Below, in pieces: positions 11,069-37,310 of a stretch of 64,000 nucleotides of DNA. Source of the stretch: an uncultured Methylomirabilota bacterium (GTDB lineage Bacteria; Methylomirabilota; Methylomirabilia; Methylomirabilales; 2-02-FULL-66-22). The DNA is taken from the NCBI GenBank assembly GCA_963705305.1, contig OY970067.1, positions 3,840,001 through 3,904,000 of the forward strand. The letters are read 5' to 3'. The notes under the pieces were generated by a model. The model had not been told where the DNA came from. It saw nothing but the letters and a program-made list of their open reading frames with translations, and ran no database searches. Both the position numbers and the translations under genes were made by a program. Numbering within the stretch: position 1 is the first letter of the stretch; each line of letters begins with the position of its first letter.

Positions 11069-11968
11069 TTACGCGAACGGCGCCGGATGCCCCAGCAGGC
11101 GGGCGTAGGCCTCCAGGTATTTCTCGCGGGTCCGTGCCACAATCTCGGCCGGCAGCGGCGGCGGCGGCGGCTTTTGCGGCCATCGGATGGAGAGCAGGTA
11201 GTCCCGCAGAAACTGCTTGTCGAATGAGGGCTGGGGACCACCAGGCCTGTAGCCGTCCTTGGGCCAGAACCGGGAGGAGTCGGGGGTCAATACTTCGTCC
11301 ACCAGGATCAGCCCCGCTCCACAGCGTCCGAACTCGAACTTGGTGTCGGCCAGGATGATCCCCCGGCTCTCGGCCAGGTTCCGAGCCCGCCGGTAGACCT
11401 GGATGCTCAGATCTCTCAAACGCTCCGCCACGTCGCTCCCCACGCGCTGCGCCATGTAGGCGAAGGCCACGTTTTCGTCGTGAGTCCCGAGTTCCGCCTT
11501 GGTGGCCGGGGTGAAGATGGGTTCCGGCAGGCGGTCGGATTCCACCAAGCCGGCCGGCAGGCGGATGCCGCACACCGACCCGTCACGCTGATACTCCTTC
11601 CATCCCGACCCGCTCAAGTAGCCGCGAACCACGCACTCGAAGGGGATTACCTCCGCCTTCTTGACAAGCATGGACCGGTCCTTGAGCATGTCCACGTAGG
11701 GCCGGCAGGCCGCCGGAAACTCTTCGGCATTGGCGCTGAGTAGATGGGTGGGGCAGATTCCGGCGATCTGATCGAACCAGAAAGTCGAGATGTGGGTGAG
11801 AATCTTCCCCTTGTCCGGGATGGGGTCGTTCATCACCACGTCGAAGGCCGAGATTCGATCGGACGCCACGATCAGCAGGGCGTCCCCCAGGTCATAGATG
11901 TCCCGGACTTTTCCCCGCCCCCTGAGCGGGAGGGTCGAAAGCTGCGTTTCGAATAGCGCGGCGCCCAT
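11069..11968 (-). CDS. purC: Phosphoribosylaminoimidazole-succinocarboxamide synthase
   Basis: [47 protein letters not shown]. Confidence 0.97.
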
Positions 11969-12154
11969 GCTCTCCTCCGGAATGGTTCTTGGGGGTGAAC
12001 GACGAATCGCTCCATCCTAGCACAGCGCGGGCAGGGGCTGGAGAGAAATTTCTGCCGCGTTTCGGGATCCCGCCCGGAGCCCGTGCGTGCAGGGTCCGGC
12101 CGGGCAACCGGCACCATTTGCAGCGAGGCCTGCGTATGTTAGGATACGTGCATT

Positions 12155-14257
12155 ATGCCCACTCTGTGTAGACCGGCCACACGCCGGTTGCTGGTCGGCG
12201 CGTGGGTCGTGGTGCTGTGCTTCGGCCTGCAGTGCCGACCGGCCGCCGGATTCAGCGCGGATCCGGAGAAGGACCTGGCCCACCTCGACCGTTTGGAGAT
12301 CTTCCAGCCAGGCGAGCCGACCATTCTGTACTCCGTCCGGGGGGAGCCTTTCGCCACTCTGGCGCCCGAATACCGCATCTTCGTCCCGCTGAGCGGAATT
12401 CCCAAGCTGGTGCGCGAGGCCGTGCTGGACGTGGAGGATGCGCAGTTCTATCAGCACGGGGCCATCAGCTTGAAGGGGATGGCGCGGGCGGCGCTCCGCA
12501 ATCTGACGTCGGGCAAGGTCCGGGAAGGTGGGAGCACCATCACCCAGCAGTTGGCCAAGAGCCTCTTCCTCAGCCCGGAGCGGACGCTCAGCCGTAAGTT
12601 CAAGGAAATCGAATTGGCCGTGGAGATCGAGCGCAGGTACAGCAAGGACAAGATCCTGGAAATGTATCTGAACACCATCTACTTCGGGGGCGGGGCCTAC
12701 GGCATCGAGGCGGCGGCGCGGACGTATTTCAACAAGACGGTGGAACAGCTCTCACTGCCAGAGGCCGCGCTGCTGGCCGGACTACCGAAGGCGCCTAGCG
12801 CCTATTCCCCCTTCAACGATCTCAAGCGGGCGCGGGAGCGGCGGAATTACGTGCTGAAACGAATGCAGGAGGAGGGGCACATCACGGCGGCGCAGGCCAG
12901 ACTCGCCATGGCCCGTCCCGTGGTGCTGAGCCCGTTCTTCCGGGTGCGCGGCGCGGCGCCGTATTTCGTGGACTACGTGCGGAAGGAGTTGGTGGCGAAA
13001 TACGGTCCCGTCCAGGCGATGCGGGGCGGCCTGCGGGTGCAGACGACCCTGGACCTGGAGATGCAGCGGACAGCTGCGGAGATCCTGCGCAATGGGGTCA
13101 GGGATGTCGAGAGGACCTTGGCGGGTAAACGGAAAGCCGGCGCTCCCCCGCTGCCGGGGCTCGAAGGGGCCCTGGTGGCGCTGGATCCCGCGACGGGGGG
13201 AATCCGCGCCATGGTGGGAGGGGTGGACTACAACCGCAGCCAGTTCAACCGCGCGGTTCAGGCCCAGCGACAGCCGGGTTCGGCTTTCAAGCCGTTCGTC
13301 TACGCTACGGCCTTCGACCGAGGCTACAGCCCGGCGGGGCTCCTGGATGATTTTCCGATCAGCTACTCCATCCCGCAGGGGGACAAGCTGGTGGAGTGGA
13401 GCCCCGAGAACTTCGATCGCCAGTACCGCGGGCTTGTGACGCTGCGCCATGCGCTGGAGGACTCCATCAATGTTCCGACGGTCCGCCTGATGGAAGGGGT
13501 GGGCGTGGAGCCGGTGATCGCCCTCGCGCACCGGATGGGGATCACCTCCGAGCTTCGGCCGGAGCTGGCCCTGGCCCTGGGGGTCTCGGAGGTGAATCTG
13601 CTCGAGCTGACCTCCGCCTACGGCGTCTTGGCGGACCGCGGGATCCGGGTGGCGCCGAGTGGAATCGGGCGGATCCTTTCCCCCAACGGCAGCGTACTGG
13701 AGACGGTTGCTCCTTTCGGCGAGCGCGTCTTGCGGGAGGGAGTGGCGTTCATTGTCACCAGCATCCTCCAGGGGGCGGTGGAGCGGGGCACCGCCAAGCG
13801 GGCCAAGGTGCCGGGGTGGGAGGTGGCGGCGAAGACGGGAACCAGTCAGGGCGCGGACAACGTCTGGCTGATGGGCTACACCCCGACGCTGGTGACGGGG
13901 CTGTGGCTGGGCTACGATCAGCCCCGCTCTCTGGGGACGTACGAGAGTGCGGGACGGCTGGCGGCGCCCATCTGGGCGGAGTTCATGCGGGCCGTGCTGA
14001 AAGGGCAGACGCCGCAAATTGAGGCCATTCCTGAGAGCGTCTTCCCCGCCTACGTGGATTATCAGACCGGCGCCCCGGCCGAGGCGGGCAGTCCGGACGC
14101 GATTCAGGAATTCTTCCTGCGGGGAGATACCACGCCGGCGGGGACTGCCGGTATCCCCGGGCCCCCGCTCTCCCCCCTGCCCGGCACGCCCCAGGCGCCC
14201 CTTCCTCCTGTCAGCCAGCCGCTGGCACCTCTGCCCGCGGGTGCCGGCGACCGGTAG
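12155..14257 (+). CDS. Class A penicillin-binding protein (PBP1A family)
   Basis: Transglycosylase GGSTITQQLAK and KILEMYLN; transpeptidase SAFK, SIN, KTG. Confidence 0.95.
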   Translation: MPTLCRPATRRLLVGAWVVVLCFGLQCRPAAGFSADPEKDLAHLDRLEIFQPGEPTILYSVRGEPFATLAPEYRIFVPLSGIPKLVREAVLDVEDAQFYQHGAISLKGMARAALRNLTSGKVREGGSTITQQLAKSLFLSPERTLSRKFKEIELAVEIERRYSKDKILEMYLNTIYFGGGAYGIEAAARTYFNKTVEQLSLPEAALLAGLPKAPSAYSPFNDLKRARERRNYVLKRMQEEGHITAAQARLAMARPVVLSPFFRVRGAAPYFVDYVRKELVAKYGPVQAMRGGLRVQTTLDLEMQRTAAEILRNGVRDVERTLAGKRKAGAPPLPGLEGALVALDPATGGIRAMVGGVDYNRSQFNRAVQAQRQPGSAFKPFVYATAFDRGYSPAGLLDDFPISYSIPQGDKLVEWSPENFDRQYRGLVTLRHALEDSINVPTVRLMEGVGVEPVIALAHRMGITSELRPELALALGVSEVNLLELTSAYGVLADRGIRVAPSGIGRILSPNGSVLETVAPFGERVLREGVAFIVTSILQGAVERGTAKRAKVPGWEVAAKTGTSQGADNVWLMGYTPTLVTGLWLGYDQPRSLGTYESAGRLAAPIWAEFMRAVLKGQTPQIEAIPESVFPAYVDYQTGAPAEAGSPDAIQEFFLRGDTTPAGTAGIPGPPLSPLPGTPQAPLPPVSQPLAPLPAGAGDR

Positions 14258-31576: not shown

Positions 31577-31920
31577 ATCAGCAGCTGGAGACATCGTCGG
31601 ACCGGGAGGGGTGCGGTGTGACGCGCCGCAGGGAGTGCCGGGCTCTCGAAAGGGACGCGGCGGGACGGGCCGAGACGGAGAGCGGCGCTCGGAGCGAGAC
31701 ATGAGAAGCGAATATGGGAAGGTGGGGGAGCATGCCGGTATTCACTGCGTGCCTCGTGCATCAACCCACGGGTGTATCCATTCCGGAGCGCATGAATGCT
31801 CCGGAATATATGCCAGACACCCCGGTTTTGCAATTGGTGGTTTCAACAGGCCCGGCCGAGACGGTTGCCCCGTGTCGATCGACGCCTGTGTCCGCTTGAC
31901 ACCCGGTATGTAGCGTGTTA

Positions 31921-31945
31921 AAAGCTGACGGAATCGGTCGGGAAT
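31921..31945. promoter_or_regulatory. IscR type-1-like operator overlapping the putative promoter of the Rrf2 gene
   Basis: AAAGCTGACGGAATCGGTCGGGAAT matches the IscR type-1 consensus ATASYYGACTRWWWYAGTCRRSTAT at 21/25 positions (hand count). Confidence 0.65.
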
Positions 31946-31976
31946 GCGTAATATTATTCGGTGAGGCAGGACAGGC

Positions 31977-32423
31977 ATGAAGATCTCGACAAAGGGCGAT
32001 TATGCGACCCGGGCGCTGTAGGAACTGATCCTTCATTACGAGGAGGGGCCTATCCCGGTGGATGCCATTGCCGCTCGGCAGGGATTGCCTGTCCGCTATC
32101 TGGAGCAGTTGCTGCTGGCCCTGAAGCGCGCCGGTTTCCTCGGCAGCAAGCGGGGGGTGAATGGCGGCTACTACTTGGCCAAGCCGCCGCGCGAAATCAC
32201 GCTCGGCCAAATCCTGCGTGCAGTAGATGGTCCCGTCACTCCGATTTTCTGTGCGGCGGAGGGTCCCCGAGAGCAGTGTCCCCGCGAGGCAGACTGTGTC
32301 CTGCGCGATGTGTGGGCGGAGGTGCGGGATGCGGTGTCGGCCATCGTGGACCGGACGACGCTGGCGGATATCGGCGAGCGGATCAAAGCCAAGCGGCAGG
32401 ACCGGATCACGTATCAGATCTGA
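31977..32423 (+). CDS. Rrf2 family regulator (IscR/CymR-like) with an in-frame TAG at codon 15 (32019-32021)
   Basis: MKISTKGDYATRAL*EL..YLEQLLLALKRAG..SKRGVNGGYYLA; three C-terminal Cys. Confidence 0.88.
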
Positions 32424-32608
32424 GACTGCTCCAAGGGCGCACGCAGCATCCGGTACCAGCGGAGAGCCATGGGGGTGCGGCCGCGCAGGTGTGATGCCTG
32501 CGTCCAAGAGGCGTCACCGGGATCTCCGGCGCGGAGACTGTTCCGATCGTTCGCCGCTCTTCCCGCAGAGGCCGATGTCGCGTCAAATTCGGAGAGGCCA
32601 ACAGGAGG

Positions 32609-33724
32609 ATGCCCATGGGCGTCACGGTCTACATTCCCACTCCGTACCGCCAATTCACGAACAATCAGGGGCGGGTGGAGGTCGAGGGGAATGATGTCTT
32701 GGCACTGATCCGGGAACTGGAGCGGCGCTACCCCGGGCTGCGCGAGCGGATCCTGGCGCCGGATGGCAGCCTGTTTCGCCACTTGAACGTGTACGTGAAC
32801 GACCGCGCCGTGGAGGAGCTGCAAGGCGTGCAGACTCCGCTCCGGGACGGCGACCGGGTGGCGGTCATTCCCGCCATGGCGGGCGGCACGGACAAGGCCG
32901 GGGGAGGACTGGCCTTCACCGAGGACCAGATCCGGCGCTACAGCCGCCACATCATCCTGCCCGATGTCGGCGGCAAGGGGCAGCGCCGCCTACTCAACAG
33001 CAAGGTGCTGCTGATCGGGGCCGGAGGGTTGGGTTCGCCGGCGGCGCTCTACCTGGCGGCGGCGGGAGTCGGGACGCTGGGGATCGTGGACTTCGACGCG
33101 GTGGACCTGAGCAACTTGCAGCGTCAGATCCTACACCACATGCACGATATCGGACGGCCCAAGGTGCAGTCGGCCGCGGAAAGCATCGCCGATCTCAATC
33201 CGGATGTGAAGGTCATCCCCTATGAGACGGCGTTGTCCTCCGAGAACGTCCGCCGGATTTTTGCCGACTACGATGTCATCGTGAACGGATCGGATAACTT
33301 CCCCACGCGATACCTGGCCAATGACGCCTGCGTGCTTCTGGGGAAGCCGATGGTGGATGGAAGCATTTTCAAGTTCGAGGGACAGGTCACCGTCTTCGTG
33401 CCGGGACAGGGCTGCTACCGCTGCCTCTACCCGGCCCCGCCGCCTCCCGGCGTGGTCCCGAGCTGTCAGGAGGCCGGGGTCCTGGGGGTGGTCTGCGGCG
33501 TAGTGGCCTCGATTCAAGGGGTGGAGACCATCAAGCTGCTCCTGGGGTTGGGCGACCCCCTGGTCGGACGCCTGCTGTTCTTCGACGCCCTGGCGATGGA
33601 GTTCCGGCAGGTCAAGTTTCGGAGGGACCCGAGCTGCCCCGTGTGCGGGGACAACCCGACGGTCACCGAGCTTATCGACTATCACGAGTTCTGCGGGATG
33701 CCGCCCACGGCGCGCGTGAGCTAG
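32609..33724 (+). CDS. MoaD/ThiS ubiquitin-like domain fused to a MoeB/ThiF (E1-like) adenylyltransferase
   Basis: Ubl ending IPAMAGG (GG at 32882-32887), then RYSRHIILP, GAGGLGSP, DLSNLQRQ, CYRC, CPVC; no rhodanese domain. Confidence 0.93.
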   Translation: MPMGVTVYIPTPYRQFTNNQGRVEVEGNDVLALIRELERRYPGLRERILAPDGSLFRHLNVYVNDRAVEELQGVQTPLRDGDRVAVIPAMAGGTDKAGGGLAFTEDQIRRYSRHIILPDVGGKGQRRLLNSKVLLIGAGGLGSPAALYLAAAGVGTLGIVDFDAVDLSNLQRQILHHMHDIGRPKVQSAAESIADLNPDVKVIPYETALSSENVRRIFADYDVIVNGSDNFPTRYLANDACVLLGKPMVDGSIFKFEGQVTVFVPGQGCYRCLYPAPPPPGVVPSCQEAGVLGVVCGVVASIQGVETIKLLLGLGDPLVGRLLFFDALAMEFRQVKFRRDPSCPVCGDNPTVTELIDYHEFCGMPPTARVS

Positions 33725-33803
33725 GCGTGGGGTGCCGGGGCAGACTGGCGGTGAGCCGCGTCCCCGTGCGTCCGGGGGGGGCGAGGCCGGAAGCGGAGCC
33801 TTG

Positions 33804-34304
33804 ATGCGGGATGGCACTGCCGGCGGGACATTCCTGGATCTTCCGGAAACGCAGATGCGAGAGATCGTCCGCCAGGCAGAGGCGGGGTATCCGGAGGAAA
33901 TATGCGGGGTCGTCGTGGGACGGCCTGGCGCGCCCGAGACCTACCAGGTCCGCCAGATCCGGAATATTGCCAACGCCGACCCGCAACGGGATCCCAAGGG
34001 GGTGCCCCGGGACGCGCGCACGGCCTATCGCATGGATGACCTGGAGCTCCTACGCGTCCTGCGGGAGGCTGAGAGCCTGAGACACGAGGTGGTGGCCTTC
34101 TACCATTCCCACCCGGACCATGATGCCTGCTTCTCCGCCATGGACCGTGATCGGGCACTTCTCTCCGGCGAGCCGCTCTGGCCCGGAGCCAGTTATCTGA
34201 TCGTGTCGGTGCGCTCCGGCCGGGCCCGCGACGCGCGAGCGTACTTCTGGAACGGCGCGGCCCGGGGTTTTGTCGAGTGCCCGGCTGTGCTCCCTCCCTC
34301 CTGA
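33804..34304 (+). CDS. JAB/MPN+ (M67, Mec+-like) metallopeptidase
   Basis: YPEEICG and YHSHPDHDACFSAMD (E..HxHx7Sx2D). Confidence 0.92.
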   Translation: MRDGTAGGTFLDLPETQMREIVRQAEAGYPEEICGVVVGRPGAPETYQVRQIRNIANADPQRDPKGVPRDARTAYRMDDLELLRVLREAESLRHEVVAFYHSHPDHDACFSAMDRDRALLSGEPLWPGASYLIVSVRSGRARDARAYFWNGAARGFVECPAVLPPS

Positions 34305-34419
34305 ACCAGCTCGCCGCGAGCGCCTGGGGCGGGAAAAGAGGCTTTGCACCGCGATACTTTTGCGTTATGGTTTCCGCAGGATCGGCGAGGGGTGTTTCGT
34401 CGCGTCCGAGGAGGGGGAG

Positions 34420-34920
34420 GTGAAGACGCAGGAGGCGCTGAGTCTGCTCATTGCGCTCGAGGAGCGCGTCGCACGAATCTATTTCCAGTTCTTCCGGCGG
34501 TTTCGCGACGACCGGGCGGTGGCGTGTTGCTGGTGGGACATGGCCGGCGACGAGTACGGCCACGCGGGCATCCTCAAGATGGTGCGGGATCTGGTCTCGC
34601 CCCAGGCGGAATCTCGCGAGATAGGCGCTCGTCTCTGGTCGCTGGTCGAGGTGGTCGAGCGCTGCGAGCAACAGGCTGCCGACGCCGACACCTTGCCCCG
34701 GGCTCTGGAGCTGGCCGTCAAGCTTGAATCGTCGGAGCTGGACGTTCTGGGGCATCGGATCGTTCAGTCCATGCGTGCGCAGTTGCCGGAGGGGGCCGCG
34801 CGCCCCTTCATCGACGAGGATGGTCACTGCCGACGATTGGTGGAGGCGGCGGGAGAGCTGCAGGATGCCAGGCTGCGGCAACGCCTGGAGGCGCTGCTCT
34901 CCAGCGCCAGGGGCCGCTGA
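34420..34920 (+). CDS. Ferritin-like (rubrerythrin-type) four-helix protein
   Basis: LEERVARIY, MAGDEYGH, LESSE, DEDGH: paired E / ExxH di-metal pattern. Confidence 0.65.
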   Translation: MKTQEALSLLIALEERVARIYFQFFRRFRDDRAVACCWWDMAGDEYGHAGILKMVRDLVSPQAESREIGARLWSLVEVVERCEQQAADADTLPRALELAVKLESSELDVLGHRIVQSMRAQLPEGAARPFIDEDGHCRRLVEAAGELQDARLRQRLEALLSSARGR

Positions 34921-34932
34921 CCGGGGTGAAAC

Positions 34933-35175
34933 ATGGCGAAGCGACGCGTGCACTTGACCTTTCAGGGGCAACTGGCGGACGAGCCGGCGATCTGGAACAT
35001 GAGCCGGGAGTTCGATCTGGTGTTCAATATTCGCCAGGCGGATCTGGTGGACGGGTTCGGCTGGATCATGCTGGAGCTGGAGGGGGATTCCCAACGGCTG
35101 GCCGACGCAATGCGATGGCTGGAGGATCGTGGCGTTATCGTTGCCCCCATCGAGCAGGACATCGTGACAGGCTAG
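34933..35175 (+). CDS. Stand-alone NIL domain protein
   Basis: VHLTFQGQLADEPAIWNMSREFDLVFNIRQA..GWIMLELEG..WLEDRGVIV. Confidence 0.88.
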   Translation: MAKRRVHLTFQGQLADEPAIWNMSREFDLVFNIRQADLVDGFGWIMLELEGDSQRLADAMRWLEDRGVIVAPIEQDIVTG

Positions 35176-35274
35176 ATCGCCCCCCGTGCCGCCTGAGAAA
35201 TATGCCTGGTTTGTGAGTCGGATTTTTGCTTGACATGTTTCTGTTGGGCTGGTTAAATCCGCCAGCATCGCTGA

Positions 35275-35397
35275 CTCATCCAGAGTGGCAGAGGGACTGG
35301 CCCTGAGAAGCCACGGCAACCCCGGTTGAAACGTCGGACGAGGGGTGCCAACTCCAGCCTCTACCCTGGTGGTCGAACGGGGGAGGGGAGAGATGAG
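35275..35397 (+). ncRNA. SAM-I (S-box) riboswitch
   Basis: CTCATCCAGAG-TGGCAGAGGGACTGGCCCTGAGAAGCCACGGCAACC...GGTGCCAACTCCAGC...AGATGAG; P1 CTCATC/GATGAG; TTGACA at 35230 upstream. Confidence 0.96.
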
Positions 35398-35421
35398 AAG
35401 GCGGCTGACGATCGGTTTCGT

Positions 35422-35458
35422 GAGCCCCTTCTCGGAGTGAGAGGGGGCTTTTTCTTTT
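35422..35458 (+). terminator. Riboswitch expression-platform terminator
   Basis: GAGCCCCTTCTC/GAGAGGGGGCTT stem followed by a T tract. Confidence 0.88.
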
Positions 35459-35475
35459 GTCTGCGGAGGCGGACC

Positions 35476-35703
35476 GTGGCGACATTGCGCGTGAGGCTCA
35501 TCTTCCCGCCCGATCTTGTCCGCGAGCCGGTGATCTACAACGTGGCCAAAACCTACGGCCTCGTTCCAAACATTCGCCGGGCGCGGGTGACGGAATCGGC
35601 GGGAGAGACGACACTGGACTTCACGGGGACAGAGGACGATCTGAAGCGGGGGCTCGAGCATCTGACCGGGCTGGGAGTCCGCGTGAAGCCGGTCAAGGAG
35701 TAA
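35476..35703 (+). CDS. Stand-alone NIL domain protein (first gene under SAM control)
   Basis: GTG start, RBS GGAGG; VRLIFPPDLVREPVIYNVAKTYGLVPNIRRARV..HLTGLGVRV. Confidence 0.88.
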   Translation: MATLRVRLIFPPDLVREPVIYNVAKTYGLVPNIRRARVTESAGETTLDFTGTEDDLKRGLEHLTGLGVRVKPVKE

Positions 35704-35730
35704 CGGGACACCCGGGAAGGTGGGGGTTCG

Positions 35731-37002
35731 ATGGGACACGTGAAAGGCCTGAAGTGTCGTGAGTGTGCGCGGCCGTATCCCGCCCAGCCACGGCACGTCT
35801 GCGAGTTCTGTTTCGGCCCGCTGGAGGTGGATTACGATTATCAGGCCATTCGCCAGCAGCTGACGAAGCAATCCATCCAGGAGGGGCCGCCCACCATGTG
35901 GCGCTACCGCGCGCTGCTGCCGATTGACGGCGAGCCGGCGGTGGGCCGCCATTGCGGTTTTACCCCGCTGGTGCGGGCGCGCAACCTCGGGAAGGCCCTG
36001 GGGCTCCTCAATCTGTACGTGAAGAACGACACGGTGAACCACCCCACGCTGTCCTTCAAGGACCGGGTCGTCGCCGTGGCGGTGAACAAGGCGATGGAGT
36101 TCGGGTTCCCTGTGGTCGCCTGCGCCTCCACCGGGAACTTGGCAAACTCGGTGGCGGCGCATGCGGCGGAGGGGGGACTGACCAGCTTCGTCTTCATCCC
36201 CTCCGACCTGGAGCAGGGGAAGGTGGTGGGAACCGCCATCTATGCTCCCAACGTCATCGCGGTGGATGGGACCTATGACGAGGTGAACCGCCTGTGCAGC
36301 GAAGTGGCGGACAAGTACGGCTGGGCCTTCGCCAACATCAACCTGCGGCCCTACTACGCCGAAGGCTCCAAGACCTTCGGCTACGAGATCGCCGAGCAGC
36401 TGGGCTGGCGGGCGCCGGATCACATCATCGTCCCGGCCGCCGGGGGATCGCTGATCACCAAGGTCTGGAAGGGCCTGCAGGAGTTCTGTTCGATGGGACT
36501 CATCCCGGAGGTGCCTACGCGGATGCACGTCGCGCAGGCGGCCGGCTGCGGCCCGATCGTGACCGCGGTCAAGGCGGGGAGCGAGGTGATCCGCCCGGTC
36601 AAGCAGCCGCGGACTATCGCAAAGTCGCTGGCCATCGGGAATCCGGCCGACGGCTACTACGCCTTTAAGGTCGTGAAGGGGAGCGGCGGATCAGGCGAGC
36701 ATGCCAGCGACGAGGAGATCATCGACGCGATGAAGCTGCTGGCATCCACCGAGGGCATCTTCGCCGAGACGGCGGGGGGCGTCACCGTGGCCGCGACCAG
36801 GAAATTGGTCCAGCAGGGGCTCATCGGGCGGCACGAGGTGACCGTGATCTCGCTGACGGGAAACGGGCTGAAGACCCAGGAGGCGGTCGCGGGCACTCTG
36901 CGCACCGCCGCGCACATCAAACCGACGTTGAAATCGTTCGACGAGGCGCTGAGCCAGGCCCCGCCAGCAGTCGAGGCGAGCCGGAGAGCCGACGCGGCCT
37001 GA
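35731..37002 (+). CDS. Threonine-synthase-like PLP enzyme, probably an O-phosphohomoserine sulfhydrylase (MetM-like)
   Basis: N-terminal CxxC..CxxC; NHPTLSFKDR (PLP Lys), ASTGNLA, EGSKT, TGNGLK; SAM riboswitch upstream and Ubl downstream. Confidence 0.88.
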   Translation: MGHVKGLKCRECARPYPAQPRHVCEFCFGPLEVDYDYQAIRQQLTKQSIQEGPPTMWRYRALLPIDGEPAVGRHCGFTPLVRARNLGKALGLLNLYVKNDTVNHPTLSFKDRVVAVAVNKAMEFGFPVVACASTGNLANSVAAHAAEGGLTSFVFIPSDLEQGKVVGTAIYAPNVIAVDGTYDEVNRLCSEVADKYGWAFANINLRPYYAEGSKTFGYEIAEQLGWRAPDHIIVPAAGGSLITKVWKGLQEFCSMGLIPEVPTRMHVAQAAGCGPIVTAVKAGSEVIRPVKQPRTIAKSLAIGNPADGYYAFKVVKGSGGSGEHASDEEIIDAMKLLASTEGIFAETAGGVTVAATRKLVQQGLIGRHEVTVISLTGNGLKTQEAVAGTLRTAAHIKPTLKSFDEALSQAPPAVEASRRADAA

Positions 37003-37031
37003 CATCATCGCATTCGAGGGGGGCAACGACG

Positions 37032-37310
37032 ATGAGCGTGCTCGTACGCATTCCCACACCGCTGCGCCCGCTCACCAAAGGGCAGGGCGAGCTCAATACG
37101 GATGCGGCAAGCGTGAAGGAATTGATCGACAGGCTGGAGCGAGACTACGCAGGGATCAGGACGCGCATCTGTGAAGACGACGGCAACGTCCGCCGCTTCA
37201 TCAACATCTATGTCAACGAAGAGGACATCCGGTTCCTGCAGGGGACCGAGACGGCTTTGAAGGCCGGGGACGAAGTATCCATCGTGCCGGCCATCGCCGG
37301 CGGGCGCTGA
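37032..37310 (+). CDS. MoaD/ThiS/CysO-like ubiquitin-like sulfur carrier ending GG-R
   Basis: VRIPTPLR, RFINIYVNEEDIRFL, VSIVPAIAGGR*. Confidence 0.93.
   Translation: MSVLVRIPTPLRPLTKGQGELNTDAASVKELIDRLERDYAGIRTRICEDDGNVRRFINIYVNEEDIRFLQGTETALKAGDEVSIVPAIAGGR

Follow-up and report, generated by a model that had tools for sequence, protein, structure and literature searches.

Mycobacterium tuberculosis makes cysteine by the CysO/CysM/Mec+/MoeZ pathway, and a protein-thiocarboxylate pathway to methionine with the components HcyS, HcyD, HcyF and MetY was reportedly described in Wolinella succinogenes by Krishnamoorthy and Begley in 2011. In the latter system, an extra residue behind the Gly-Gly of the carrier is said to be removed by a JAMM protease, the E1 reportedly has no obvious sulfurtransferase, the genes are linked to sulfate assimilation, and the condensing enzyme is an O-acetylhomoserine sulfhydrylase of the PF01053 fold. 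A different route, in which MetM and MetO convert O-phospho-L-homoserine to homocysteine, was described in Streptomyces albulus (Hasebe et al. 2024, Appl Environ Microbiol 90:e0124724, via PMC13759103 and PMC12172450); this is the Streptomyces report to which the first-pass annotation of the locus had referred. MetM, MetO, Mec and MoeZ are listed as pathway members (PMC13759103 Table 2), MetM is described as often misannotated as threonine synthase (PMC13759103 S1D), and a SAM riboswitch is given as present at S. albulus metM (PMC12172450). Methanogens and Desulfovibrio have a homocysteine pathway of DUF39 and a NIL/ferredoxin protein (+COG2122), according to PMC5764234, which also mentions 'the protein thiocarboxylate pathway'.

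The locus lies in a 64,000-nucleotide stretch of DNA from an uncultured Methylomirabilota bacterium, referred to as the window. All elements listed by the first-pass annotation were found on the + strand of 31921..37310, with three corrections: the Rrf2 gene contains a TAG codon, the riboswitch reaches only part of the locus, and the ferritin-like protein is weakly supported as such. The gene content, the riboswitch, the conservation and the gene fusions reported below were observed directly. The features are:

31978..32423, + strand: Rrf2-family regulator gene, interrupted (translation; Pfam Rrf2)
32609..33724, + strand: fusion of a Ubl of ThiS/MoaD fold with a ThiF/MoeB-type E1, Ubl::E1 (Pfam ThiS + ThiF)
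33732..34304, + strand: JAMM/JAB metalloprotease, Mec/HcyD-like (Pfam Prok-JAB)
34420..34920, + strand: helical protein of 166 aa, possibly of ferritin/rubrerythrin type (below the threshold of every Pfam family)
34933..35175, + strand: NIL1, stand-alone 80-aa NIL-domain protein (Pfam NIL)
35230..35258, + strand: promoter-like element (read from sequence)
35273..35399, + strand: SAM-I (S-box) riboswitch aptamer (RF00162)
35422..35460, + strand: intrinsic terminator of the riboswitch expression platform (stem + T-run)
35476..35703, + strand: NIL2, stand-alone 75-aa NIL-domain protein (Pfam NIL)
35731..37002, + strand: MetM-like ThrC-fold PLP enzyme with an N-terminal 4-Cys ribbon (PALP)
37032..37310, + strand: MetO-like sulfur carrier of ThiS/MoaD fold (Pfam ThiS)

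Since the same gene order is seen again across the phylum and beyond, the cluster is not a product of chance. Taken as a whole, the locus is likely to encode a single sulfur-carrier system that is transcribed as two units. Unit A would comprise, in this order, the broken Rrf2 gene, the Ubl::E1 fusion, the JAB gene, the ferritin-like gene and NIL1, and Unit B the promoter, the SAM-I riboswitch, the terminator, NIL2, the MetM-like gene and the MetO-like gene. As part of this explanation, Unit B is probably a methionine-repressed homocysteine operon of the MetM/MetO type.

The aptamer matched RF00162 over the full model (1-108) with 74.1 bits (E 1.7e-15; gathering score 44.4), and it is the sole match to this family in the 5.65-Mb genome. 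In an alignment with 10 orthologous leaders, the core was invariant and the stems variable. A putative promoter, TTGACA-17 nt-TTAAAT, is located 14 nt 5' of the aptamer; a consensus scan missed it because the scan accepts only -10 hexamers with A as their second base. The terminator hairpin of 12-13 bp (35422-35450), followed by the T-run TTTTCTTTTGT, forms beside the aptamer in the MFE fold. At high SAM, the aptamer would be closed and the terminator would halt transcription. Because the riboswitch and its own promoter separate NIL1 from NIL2, the predicted SAM control is limited to NIL2, the ThrC-like gene and the carrier; the proposal that the riboswitch governs the locus stands for these three genes and falls for those upstream. 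NIL2, the first gene 3' of the riboswitch, starts at GTG 35476 with GGAGG ahead of it, and a start at 35326 was rejected on these grounds. A SAM-I riboswitch lies immediately 5' of the MetM-like orthologue in 32 of 37 genomes of the order, and immediately 5' of the enzyme-carrier operon in 24 of 80 named loci from other phyla (Nitrospirota, Planctomycetota, Chloroflexota, Cyanobacteriota, Verrucomicrobiota, Actinomycetota and others).

The enzyme encoded at 35731-37002 matched PALP with 2.2e-67. Its score on the threonine synthase profile TIGR00260 (278.5-279.3 bits) is over the equivalog cut-off of 167.1, and threonine synthases are also its closest matches of known structure (2zsj, 2.6e-62). 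These matches favor a second genuine threonine synthase, or an enzyme of the threonine/serine dehydratase type, next to a carrier that serves molybdopterin, thiamin or another pathway; so do the threonine-related activities that PMC12172450 reports, with no proof of MetM function, for a Microcystis homologue. However, a search for a second, canonical thrC, which the first-pass annotation had suggested, found one elsewhere in the genome with a higher TIGR00260 score (335.5 bits). Four ThrC-like genes are present in total, and in a tree built with FastTree only, 90 context-defined sequences and 14 representatives formed one clade with 100% local support that contains the window enzyme and leaves out the other three, canonical ThrC among them. 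The neighborhood survey, likewise suggested there, showed the carrier adjoining the enzyme in 40/40 loci of the phylum and 71/80 named loci of other phyla (111/120), and SAM-I ahead of the gene in several phyla is a methionine rather than a threonine signal. We therefore consider a second threonine synthase very unlikely and regard the enzyme as a candidate carrier-thiocarboxylate-dependent homocysteine synthase.

The MetM-like clade also takes in the Microcystis homologue, 58% identical to the window enzyme, and sequences from Actinomycetota; the best 120 matches of one actinomycete member were all from Micromonosporaceae. The Microcystis enzyme is reported to be 51.6% identical to S. albulus MetM and its neighbor 47% identical to MetO (PMC12172450), and through it an indirect orthology of the window enzyme to S. 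albulus MetM (UniProt A0A059WBP2) can be proposed. In many phyla the identity of MetM-like orthologues is 57-86%, while paralogues reach 41% at most, and an orthologue at E <= 1e-136 was detected in 104 of the 121 genomes sampled in the phylum.

The adjoining carrier matched Pfam ThiS (2.9e-17) and ends in VPAIAGG-R. Across 71 carrier sequences, five residues (P86, A87, A89, G90 and G91) never change. The orthologues differ in what follows the Gly-Gly (nothing, R, A, H, C, K, W, RR or longer), as expected of a cap that gets removed. The GG-R carrier and the JAMM protease of the window resemble the carrier trimming ascribed to the Wolinella system. The likeness extends to the E1 and, in the relative G008, to the linkage with sulfate-assimilation genes, but the condensing enzyme here is of the ThrC fold, and a search of this genome gave no homoserine acetyltransferase. 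Shared with the S. albulus system are a ThrC-like enzyme that is distinct from the housekeeping ThrC and adjoins a ThiS/MoaD-type GG carrier, a SAM riboswitch ahead of the pair, the availability of a JAMM protease and an E1, and O-phosphohomoserine supplied by ThrB. The differences are that the E1 of the window lacks the rhodanese domain of MoeZ and has its own fused carrier domain, that the enzyme-carrier pair here is joined by one or two NIL proteins, and that the E1 and the JAB protease are encoded beside the operon.

Every chemical step of the route proposed for Unit B is one that we infer from such comparisons. Homoserine kinase would provide O-phosphohomoserine, the JAB protease would take off the Arg capping the Gly-Gly of the carrier, and the E1 would adenylate the carrier C-terminus for conversion to a thiocarboxylate, no rhodanese domain being present to indicate the sulfur donor. 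The ThrC-like PLP enzyme would then swap the phosphate of O-phosphohomoserine for the carrier sulfur, homocysteine would be released, probably by the JAB protease following an S-to-N shift, and MetH would methylate it. The first-pass annotation had put forward the same core of ThrC paralogue, E1 activation and JAB trimming of GG-R, and the suggestion gains comparative support from the separate thrC, the carrier linkage, the sole SAM-I riboswitch, the presence of thrB (262.3 bits, over cut-off), a source of O-phosphohomoserine, and the failure to find MetX, HTS/MetA or HcyBio/DUF39 in the genome (98.9% complete), in which the annotation had advised a search for metA and metX. MetH is present in the genome; MetE was looked for there and not found.

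Two PLP enzymes of Cys/Met metabolism (PF01053) are encoded in the genome (454 and 414 bits) and could in principle make most of the homocysteine in the plant manner, from O-phosphohomoserine and cysteine or sulfide, leaving the MetM-like operon redundant or making cysteate or another thio-amino acid. One of the two comes near the mycobacterial-type cystathionine gamma-synthase, with 455 bits where the cut-off is 513, and cysteate synthase is a relative of ThrC. Yet no homoserine acyltransferase turned up that would supply the usual bacterial enzymes of this kind, neither PF01053 gene lies behind a SAM riboswitch, the only one in the genome preceding NIL2, and the cysteate synthase profile gave the enzyme at 35731-37002 a score of 56.8 against a cut-off of 324.9, so we regard this explanation as unlikely. 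MetX-like genes co-occur with the MetM-like orthologue in 44/121 genomes of the phylum, and there is therefore no clean either/or pattern.

In Unit A, the Rrf2 frame opens at ATG 31978 and its translation meets an in-frame TAG at 32020-32022 (codon 15). Pfam Rrf2 matched the portion 3' of the TAG with 6.6e-33, beginning at profile position 27; this portion keeps three Cys (C-x8-C-x5-C), and the closest NCBIfam equivalog is CymR (81.9 bits, under its cut-off). The gene in this genome lacks an intact frame with the N-terminal winged helix. The orthologue in the same-genus relative G053 is intact (148 aa) with Gln at the codon of the TAG, and the region 31917-32089 showed 0 differences in a separate contig of the public run X1 (depth ~2; possibly the source sample). 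The nonsense codon leaves the suggested Rrf2 control unsupported in this genome.

The Ubl::E1 fusion matched Pfam ThiS (9.1e-15) and ThiF (1.3e-84). Its carrier domain (residues 1-93) ends in AMAGG, and GxGxxG and two CxxC motifs can be seen in the translation. The NCBIfam MoeZ profile was matched only at positions 15-275 of 392, the rhodanese domain being absent. Our E1 profile found just one more match in the whole genome, a 319-aa protein with no room for a C-terminal rhodanese domain, as the match reaches its last residue. The JAB protein, the only strong JAB match in the genome, matched Pfam Prok-JAB (2.5e-20) and scored 79.9 bits on the desampylase profile, under cut-off; the JAMM signature HSHPDHDACFSAMD (HxHx7Sx2D) is intact, and the true start is likely ATG 33804. 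The protein at 34420-34920, named ferritin-like by the first-pass annotation, reached the threshold of no Pfam family (E 0.11 for Rubrerythrin), and Foldseek gave nothing at E <= 0.001 for its AF2 model (pLDDT 77). It obtained an Atlas score of 0.95 to clusters with Rubrerythrin in 12-39% of members, and the top VIA-align rows include ferritin-like proteins at Z 11.3-10, below the ~13 advised for helical bundles, with 1vjx at Z 11.3 (22% identity) likewise below that level. One ExxH (E45-H48) is conserved in 5 aligned sequences, and among the loci examined homologues occur at 5 same-genus loci only. The fold evidence is suggestive only, and a ferritin-like identity of this protein is weakly supported.

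Co-oriented and closely spaced as they are, the nine genes had been read as one relay with two carriers. The same-genus relatives G053 and G051 have the order Rrf2-CysK (444 bits, over cut-off)-Ubl::E1-CysM-like (349 bits, cysKM)-JAB, with the Rrf2 gene heading this module intact, and G048 carries Ubl-CysM-like-JAB; apart from the cysteine-module genes, the relatives' regions are collinear with the window. Neither CysK nor a CysM-like gene is present in the window, and no close orthologue of the CysM-type synthase was found elsewhere in this genome; the comparison is unrooted, so that the genes were either lost here or gained in the relatives. Because the Ubl::E1 and JAB of the relatives belong to a CysK/CysM module, of which both synthases are missing here, the two carriers represent two modules, and the upstream Ubl::E1-JAB block is most likely the remains of the cysteine module known from the relatives. 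The relatives' block, with carrier, CysM-like synthase, JAMM protease and E1, resembles the mycobacterial cysteine pathway, whereas the window has neither CysM-like nor CysK, a carrier fused to the E1, and a broken regulator. An integrated homocysteine relay, in which the two carriers and the two NIL proteins work together with Rrf2 and the ferritin-like protein, would account for the E1 and JAB genes having been retained without CysM, and for NIL1 lying beside the riboswitch operon throughout the order. Nevertheless, with the cluster split by the riboswitch and its promoter, the ferritin-like gene limited to one genus, Rrf2 broken here, and NIL1 following sulfate-assimilation genes in other families of the order (relative G008), we find such a relay highly improbable. 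Under the two-unit explanation, the E1 and JAB genes, kept despite the missing synthases and the broken Rrf2 gene, may be needed by MetO.

The first-pass annotation had presented the combination as an uncharacterised system; the core pathway is already published and built into GapMind 2026, and the NIL proteins are an addition to it. NIL1 and NIL2 matched Pfam NIL with 2.5e-17 and 3.1e-12, respectively, and neither contains cysteine, so they are probably not sulfur carriers. In the DUF39 pathway, genetic evidence shows that a NIL protein is needed to make homocysteine, in a molecular role described as unexplained (PMC5764234); it is fused to a ferredoxin domain and acting with DUF39 on aspartate semialdehyde, whereas NIL here is stand-alone (carrier-fused in other phyla) and the genome has no DUF39. 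The position of NIL1 is conserved in 11/11 loci of the order examined, and a NIL gene lies close to the enzyme-carrier pair in 34/40 loci of the phylum and 41/80 of other phyla, so that the NIL proteins appear as conserved partners of this pair. Tentatively, we see them as a subunit that binds a ligand (Met, Hcy or SAM) or docks the carrier. In an alignment of 65 NIL sequences, P18 is invariant and R34, A36, V38, G43, E48, G67, V70 and P72 are at least 90% conserved. Seven single-frame MetO-GG-NIL fusions were found, with NIL placed behind the Gly-Gly of the carrier.

The source genome (G000) consists of one contig of 5.65 Mb with 66% G+C, and the closest protein relatives of the window are named NC10 or Candidatus Methylomirabilis. 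Every gene at 31978-37310 lies on the plus strand.

Features of the cluster, in gene order (window positions where given; strand; description)
Frame from ATG 31978, plus strand, Rrf2 gene with an in-frame TAG
Plus strand, Ubl::E1, a ThiS-fold carrier domain fused to a ThiF/MoeB E1, 371 aa
Plus strand, Prok-JAB protease with intact JAMM motif
Plus strand, helical ('ferritin-like') protein, 166 aa
34933-35175, plus strand, NIL1, 80 aa
35273-35399, plus strand, SAM-I aptamer, 74.1 bits (gathering score 44.4)
35422-35460, plus strand, terminator behind the SAM-I aptamer
35476-35703, plus strand, NIL2, 75 aa, start GTG 35476 preceded by GGAGG
35731-37002, plus strand, ThrC-like PLP enzyme, 423 aa, with an N-terminal four-cysteine ribbon
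37032-37310, plus strand, ThiS/MoaD carrier, 92 aa, C-terminal end AGG-R

The flanks, with AMMECR1, purH and purD on the opposite strand at the 5' side and a GntR/FCD regulator and TRAP transporter genes at the 3' side, are unrelated to the cluster. The elements listed in the first-pass annotation are real, but three points required correction, namely the state of the Rrf2 gene, the reach of the SAM-I riboswitch and the ferritin label. Rrf2 control is doubtful in G000 because the frame is interrupted by a TAG at 32020-32022, where an intact same-genus orthologue has Gln. A contig assembled separately from a public sequencing run (X1), which yielded only short DNA contigs covering 20 of 30 bins, is identical to the window over 31917-32089, TAG included, so the TAG is unlikely to be an assembler artefact; the depth of this contig is about 2 and X1 may be the source sample, so strain independence is not implied. 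The ferritin label of the 166-aa protein is weak. No Pfam family reached threshold (Rubrerythrin E 0.11), a Foldseek search of its AF2 model (pLDDT 77) against PDB gave no match with E ≤ 0.001, and 12-39% of its neighbours in a language-model search carry Rubrerythrin. VIA-align placed many ferritin-like proteins in the top rows (Z 11.3 to 1vjx, 22% identity), a range (Z below about 13) that the tool warns is common for helical bundles. Among the loci examined, this gene is restricted to the genus.

A perfect TTGACA, 17 nt and TTAAAT, read from the sequence 14 nt 5' of the aptamer, divides the cluster into two units, so that control by SAM would be limited to NIL2, enzyme and carrier. The window's SAM-I was the single match in an RF00162 search of G000, and no methionine-codon leader was seen at 35400-35475, between the riboswitch and the first gene. 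Within the order, 32 of 37 genomes have SAM-I directly upstream of the enzyme, with contig and strand shared, against none of 84 sampled genomes from the other families of the phylum. Using a covariance model made from 11 leaders of the order, we found such an element directly upstream in 24 of 80 named-species loci (the best 80 of at least 600 matches). The same-genus genome G054 has a second SAM-I (G054:C390:9429-9535), about 1.6 kb 5' of a MetX-like gene (11107-12159, 484 bits), which suggests that a conventional route is carried there beside the MetM/MetO-type one.

The first-pass annotation proposed to look for a second canonical thrC and for metA or metX elsewhere in the genome. Four ThrC-like genes are present in G000: a canonical thrC (353 aa), the window enzyme, a ThrC-LeuA_dimer fusion and a fourth paralogue. 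The canonical thrC scores higher on TIGR00260 than the window enzyme (335.5 versus 279.3 bits) and the latter falls in a separate clade, so we rejected it, on these comparisons, as the probable threonine synthase of the genome. A homoserine kinase and MetH were found, MetE was not, and MetX, HTS/MetA and DUF39 gave no match in G000 (rated 98.9% complete); its two PF01053 enzymes score below every equivalog cut-off. The MetH match (G000:C1:4441317-4444734) comprises two adjacent frames with a 14-nt overlap (584 and 698 bits), as a split gene or a frameshift would give. The fusion, a ThrC-like protein of 619 aa with a zinc ribbon and a C-terminal LeuA_dimer (LeuA allosteric) domain, lies about 50 kb beyond the window (G000:C1:3954313-3956172; L002:6314-8173), and many phylum genomes, as well as representatives P0196 and P0231, have frames of 631-656 aa with this match pattern. 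Among 11 long representatives there were no NIL-MetM fusions; the fusions seen were one of ThiF-PALP, with others to LeuA_dimer and PadR. Enzyme relatives carry a fused ThiF E1 domain in P0179 and a C-terminal PadR regulator domain in P0203 and P0223.

With the window enzyme as the query, 104 of 121 phylum genomes (four of them unpublished: G047, G101, G029 and G058) gave a match at E ≤ 1e-136 with 60-86% identity, paralogues reaching at most 41%. We fetched 40 loci from the phylum and the best 80 of at least 600 matches in named-species genomes (56-68% identity), which came from Rokubacteria, Nitrospirota, Planctomycetota, Chloroflexota, Cyanobacteriota, Verrucomicrobiota, Thermodesulfobacteriota, Actinomycetota, Aquificota and others. 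Searched with profiles iterated from the window's own proteins, the carrier adjoins the enzyme in 40/40 phylum and 71/80 named loci (63/71 among named loci with at least 900 bp downstream), and the gene linkage thus held up in relatives. In a FastTree phylogeny of 125 sequences, the only tree made and one with several long branches flagged, 90 context-defined sequences and 14 representatives formed one clade with 100% local support, which leaves out the three other ThrC-like genes of G000, as expected if the enzyme is distinct from ThrC. MetX and MetM as strict alternatives within the phylum were rejected: 44 of the 121 genomes gave MetX-like matches, frequently along with the orthologue, and so did only 6 of the 17 genomes without it.

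The route from O-phosphohomoserine to homocysteine via a carrier thiocarboxylate was first described in 2024 in Streptomyces (Hasebe et al. 2024, as cited in PMC13759103 and PMC12172450). PMC13759103 (GapMind 2026) gives it as four steps of a thiocarboxylate pathway in S. albulus, warns that MetM frequently carries a wrong threonine synthase annotation, and includes a diverged Mec from a Nitrospirota isolate. PMC12172450 reports 51.6% identity between a Microcystis enzyme and S. albulus MetM and 47% between the neighbour of that enzyme and MetO, and assigns a SAM riboswitch to S. albulus metM. With a Microcystis novacekii homologue, the window enzyme shares 58% identity. No Streptomyces was among the best 80 of at least 600 named-genome matches, and a homologue search from a Micromonosporaceae member returned only Micromonosporaceae among the named matches listed; membership in the MetM/MetO route is therefore argued from the Microcystis identity chain and the gene context, and is probable on that indirect basis. 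The mechanism proposed in the first-pass annotation was thus largely right for the core, but it is an already known pathway. Unlike MoeZ of that pathway, the window E1 has no rhodanese domain. The locus and its relatives point to MetM/MetO as the principal source of homocysteine throughout Methylomirabilota (NC10 and Rokubacteria), and to wide occurrence of the route in Nitrospirota, Chloroflexota, Planctomycetota and others. The annotation 'threonine synthase' persists for the enzyme in all of them, so that metabolic models of these uncultured groups contain a false methionine gap.

Residues after the GG vary among carrier orthologues, as expected of a cap removed by a protease. In a tally that includes a few mis-picked ORFs, the tail was absent in 39 orthologues and was R in 24, A in 3, H in 3, C in 2, K in 2, W in 2 and RR in 2, the remainder having longer tails.

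The idea that all genes form a single relay did not survive comparison with same-genus genomes. In G053 and G051 the upstream block reads Rrf2 (intact, 148 aa), CysK (444 bits, above the cut-off), Ubl::E1, CysM-like (349 bits, cysKM) and JAB, followed by the ferritin-like gene (G051), NIL1, SAM-I, NIL2, enzyme and carrier; in G048 the carrier stands alone, with CysM-like and JAB genes. The window lines up with these relatives at 70-80% nucleotide identity apart from both cysteine synthase genes, which it lacks; the comparison is unrooted as to loss here or gain in the relatives. From this gene order, the two carriers are most simply read as belonging to two modules, one for cysteine of the CysO/CysM/Mec type, headed by a CymR-like Rrf2, and one for methionine. 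CysK is present elsewhere in G000, which has no close CysM-like orthologue and, with our own profiles, only two E1 genes and one strong JAB. The fused carrier shares 46% identity with MetO and 70% with its fused counterpart in G053. Retention of E1 and JAB though CysM is absent fits a role in serving MetO, and the locus amounts to a natural experiment in which the neighbouring module's cysteine synthases and regulator are gone and E1/JAB are kept. A repeated element, found at L038:7841-8137 and 17 or more times in G000 (for example at C1:3815407-3815685), has a spurious 98-aa frame that matches many sites in G000, and a copy lies inside the cysteine module of G051 and G048. In G048 (L158:1-600, contig C229), the 5' part of Ubl::E1 is swapped in frame for unrelated repeat-like sequence, reducing the carrier domain to its last residues before E1; rearrangement and assembly chimera are both possible causes.

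A NIL gene accompanies the enzyme-carrier pair in 34/40 phylum and 41/80 named loci. An alignment of 65 NIL sequences (A3) contains an invariant P18 and eight positions conserved in at least 90%, but no conserved cysteine, which makes persulfide relay unlikely. In seven loci (L079, L082, L084, L085, L088, L089 and L124; Thermodesulfobacteriota, Planctomycetota, Omnitrophota, Sumerlaeota and unclassified bacteria), carrier and NIL form one open frame, with NIL straight after ...AIAGG; an actinomycete locus, L097, has a carrier-E1 fusion beside the enzyme. PMC5764234 describes a NIL/ferredoxin protein as needed in the DUF39 homocysteine route. Our literature search, which covered neither most subscription papers nor the primary MetM paper and supplements, found NIL in the DUF39 context only and none with MetM/MetO. 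A complex prediction for MetM, MetO and NIL2 (own alignments, NIL2 as the partner) gave a score of 0.00 and a mark of 0.32, and carries no verdict on binding.

NIL could be an obligatory, undescribed third component of MetM/MetO, a proposal that, taken jointly with all the parts that follow, is possible but somewhat doubtful. NIL would be a cysteine-free, ACT-like module docking on the carrier or the enzyme, and may sense methionine, homocysteine or SAM. Certain lineages would make it as a C-terminal carrier cap (MetO-GG/NIL) that has to be cut off by the JAMM protease, and cap removal could couple carrier activation with release of a regulator. In this order there would have been a split into two NIL paralogues, one inside SAM control and one outside it, the latter perhaps tied to sulfur assimilation or to the cysteine module. 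A recurring partner that is required also in the unrelated DUF39 route poses a concrete, testable question in sulfur amino-acid metabolism. At the locus L040:306-6143 of G008, from another family of the order, NIL1 comes after genes for sulfite reductase, a beta-propeller protein, APS/PAPS reductase and ATP sulfurylase, and the other strand encodes a two-domain rhodanese. Judged by eye in alignment A3, each NIL paralogue of the window resembles a subtype found elsewhere: NIL1 the 'GW..LELEG ... PIE' form, which is common in Rokubacteria and Nitrospirota, and NIL2 the 'ARVTE..GE' form, which occurs in Planctomycetota and Thermodesulfovibrionia.
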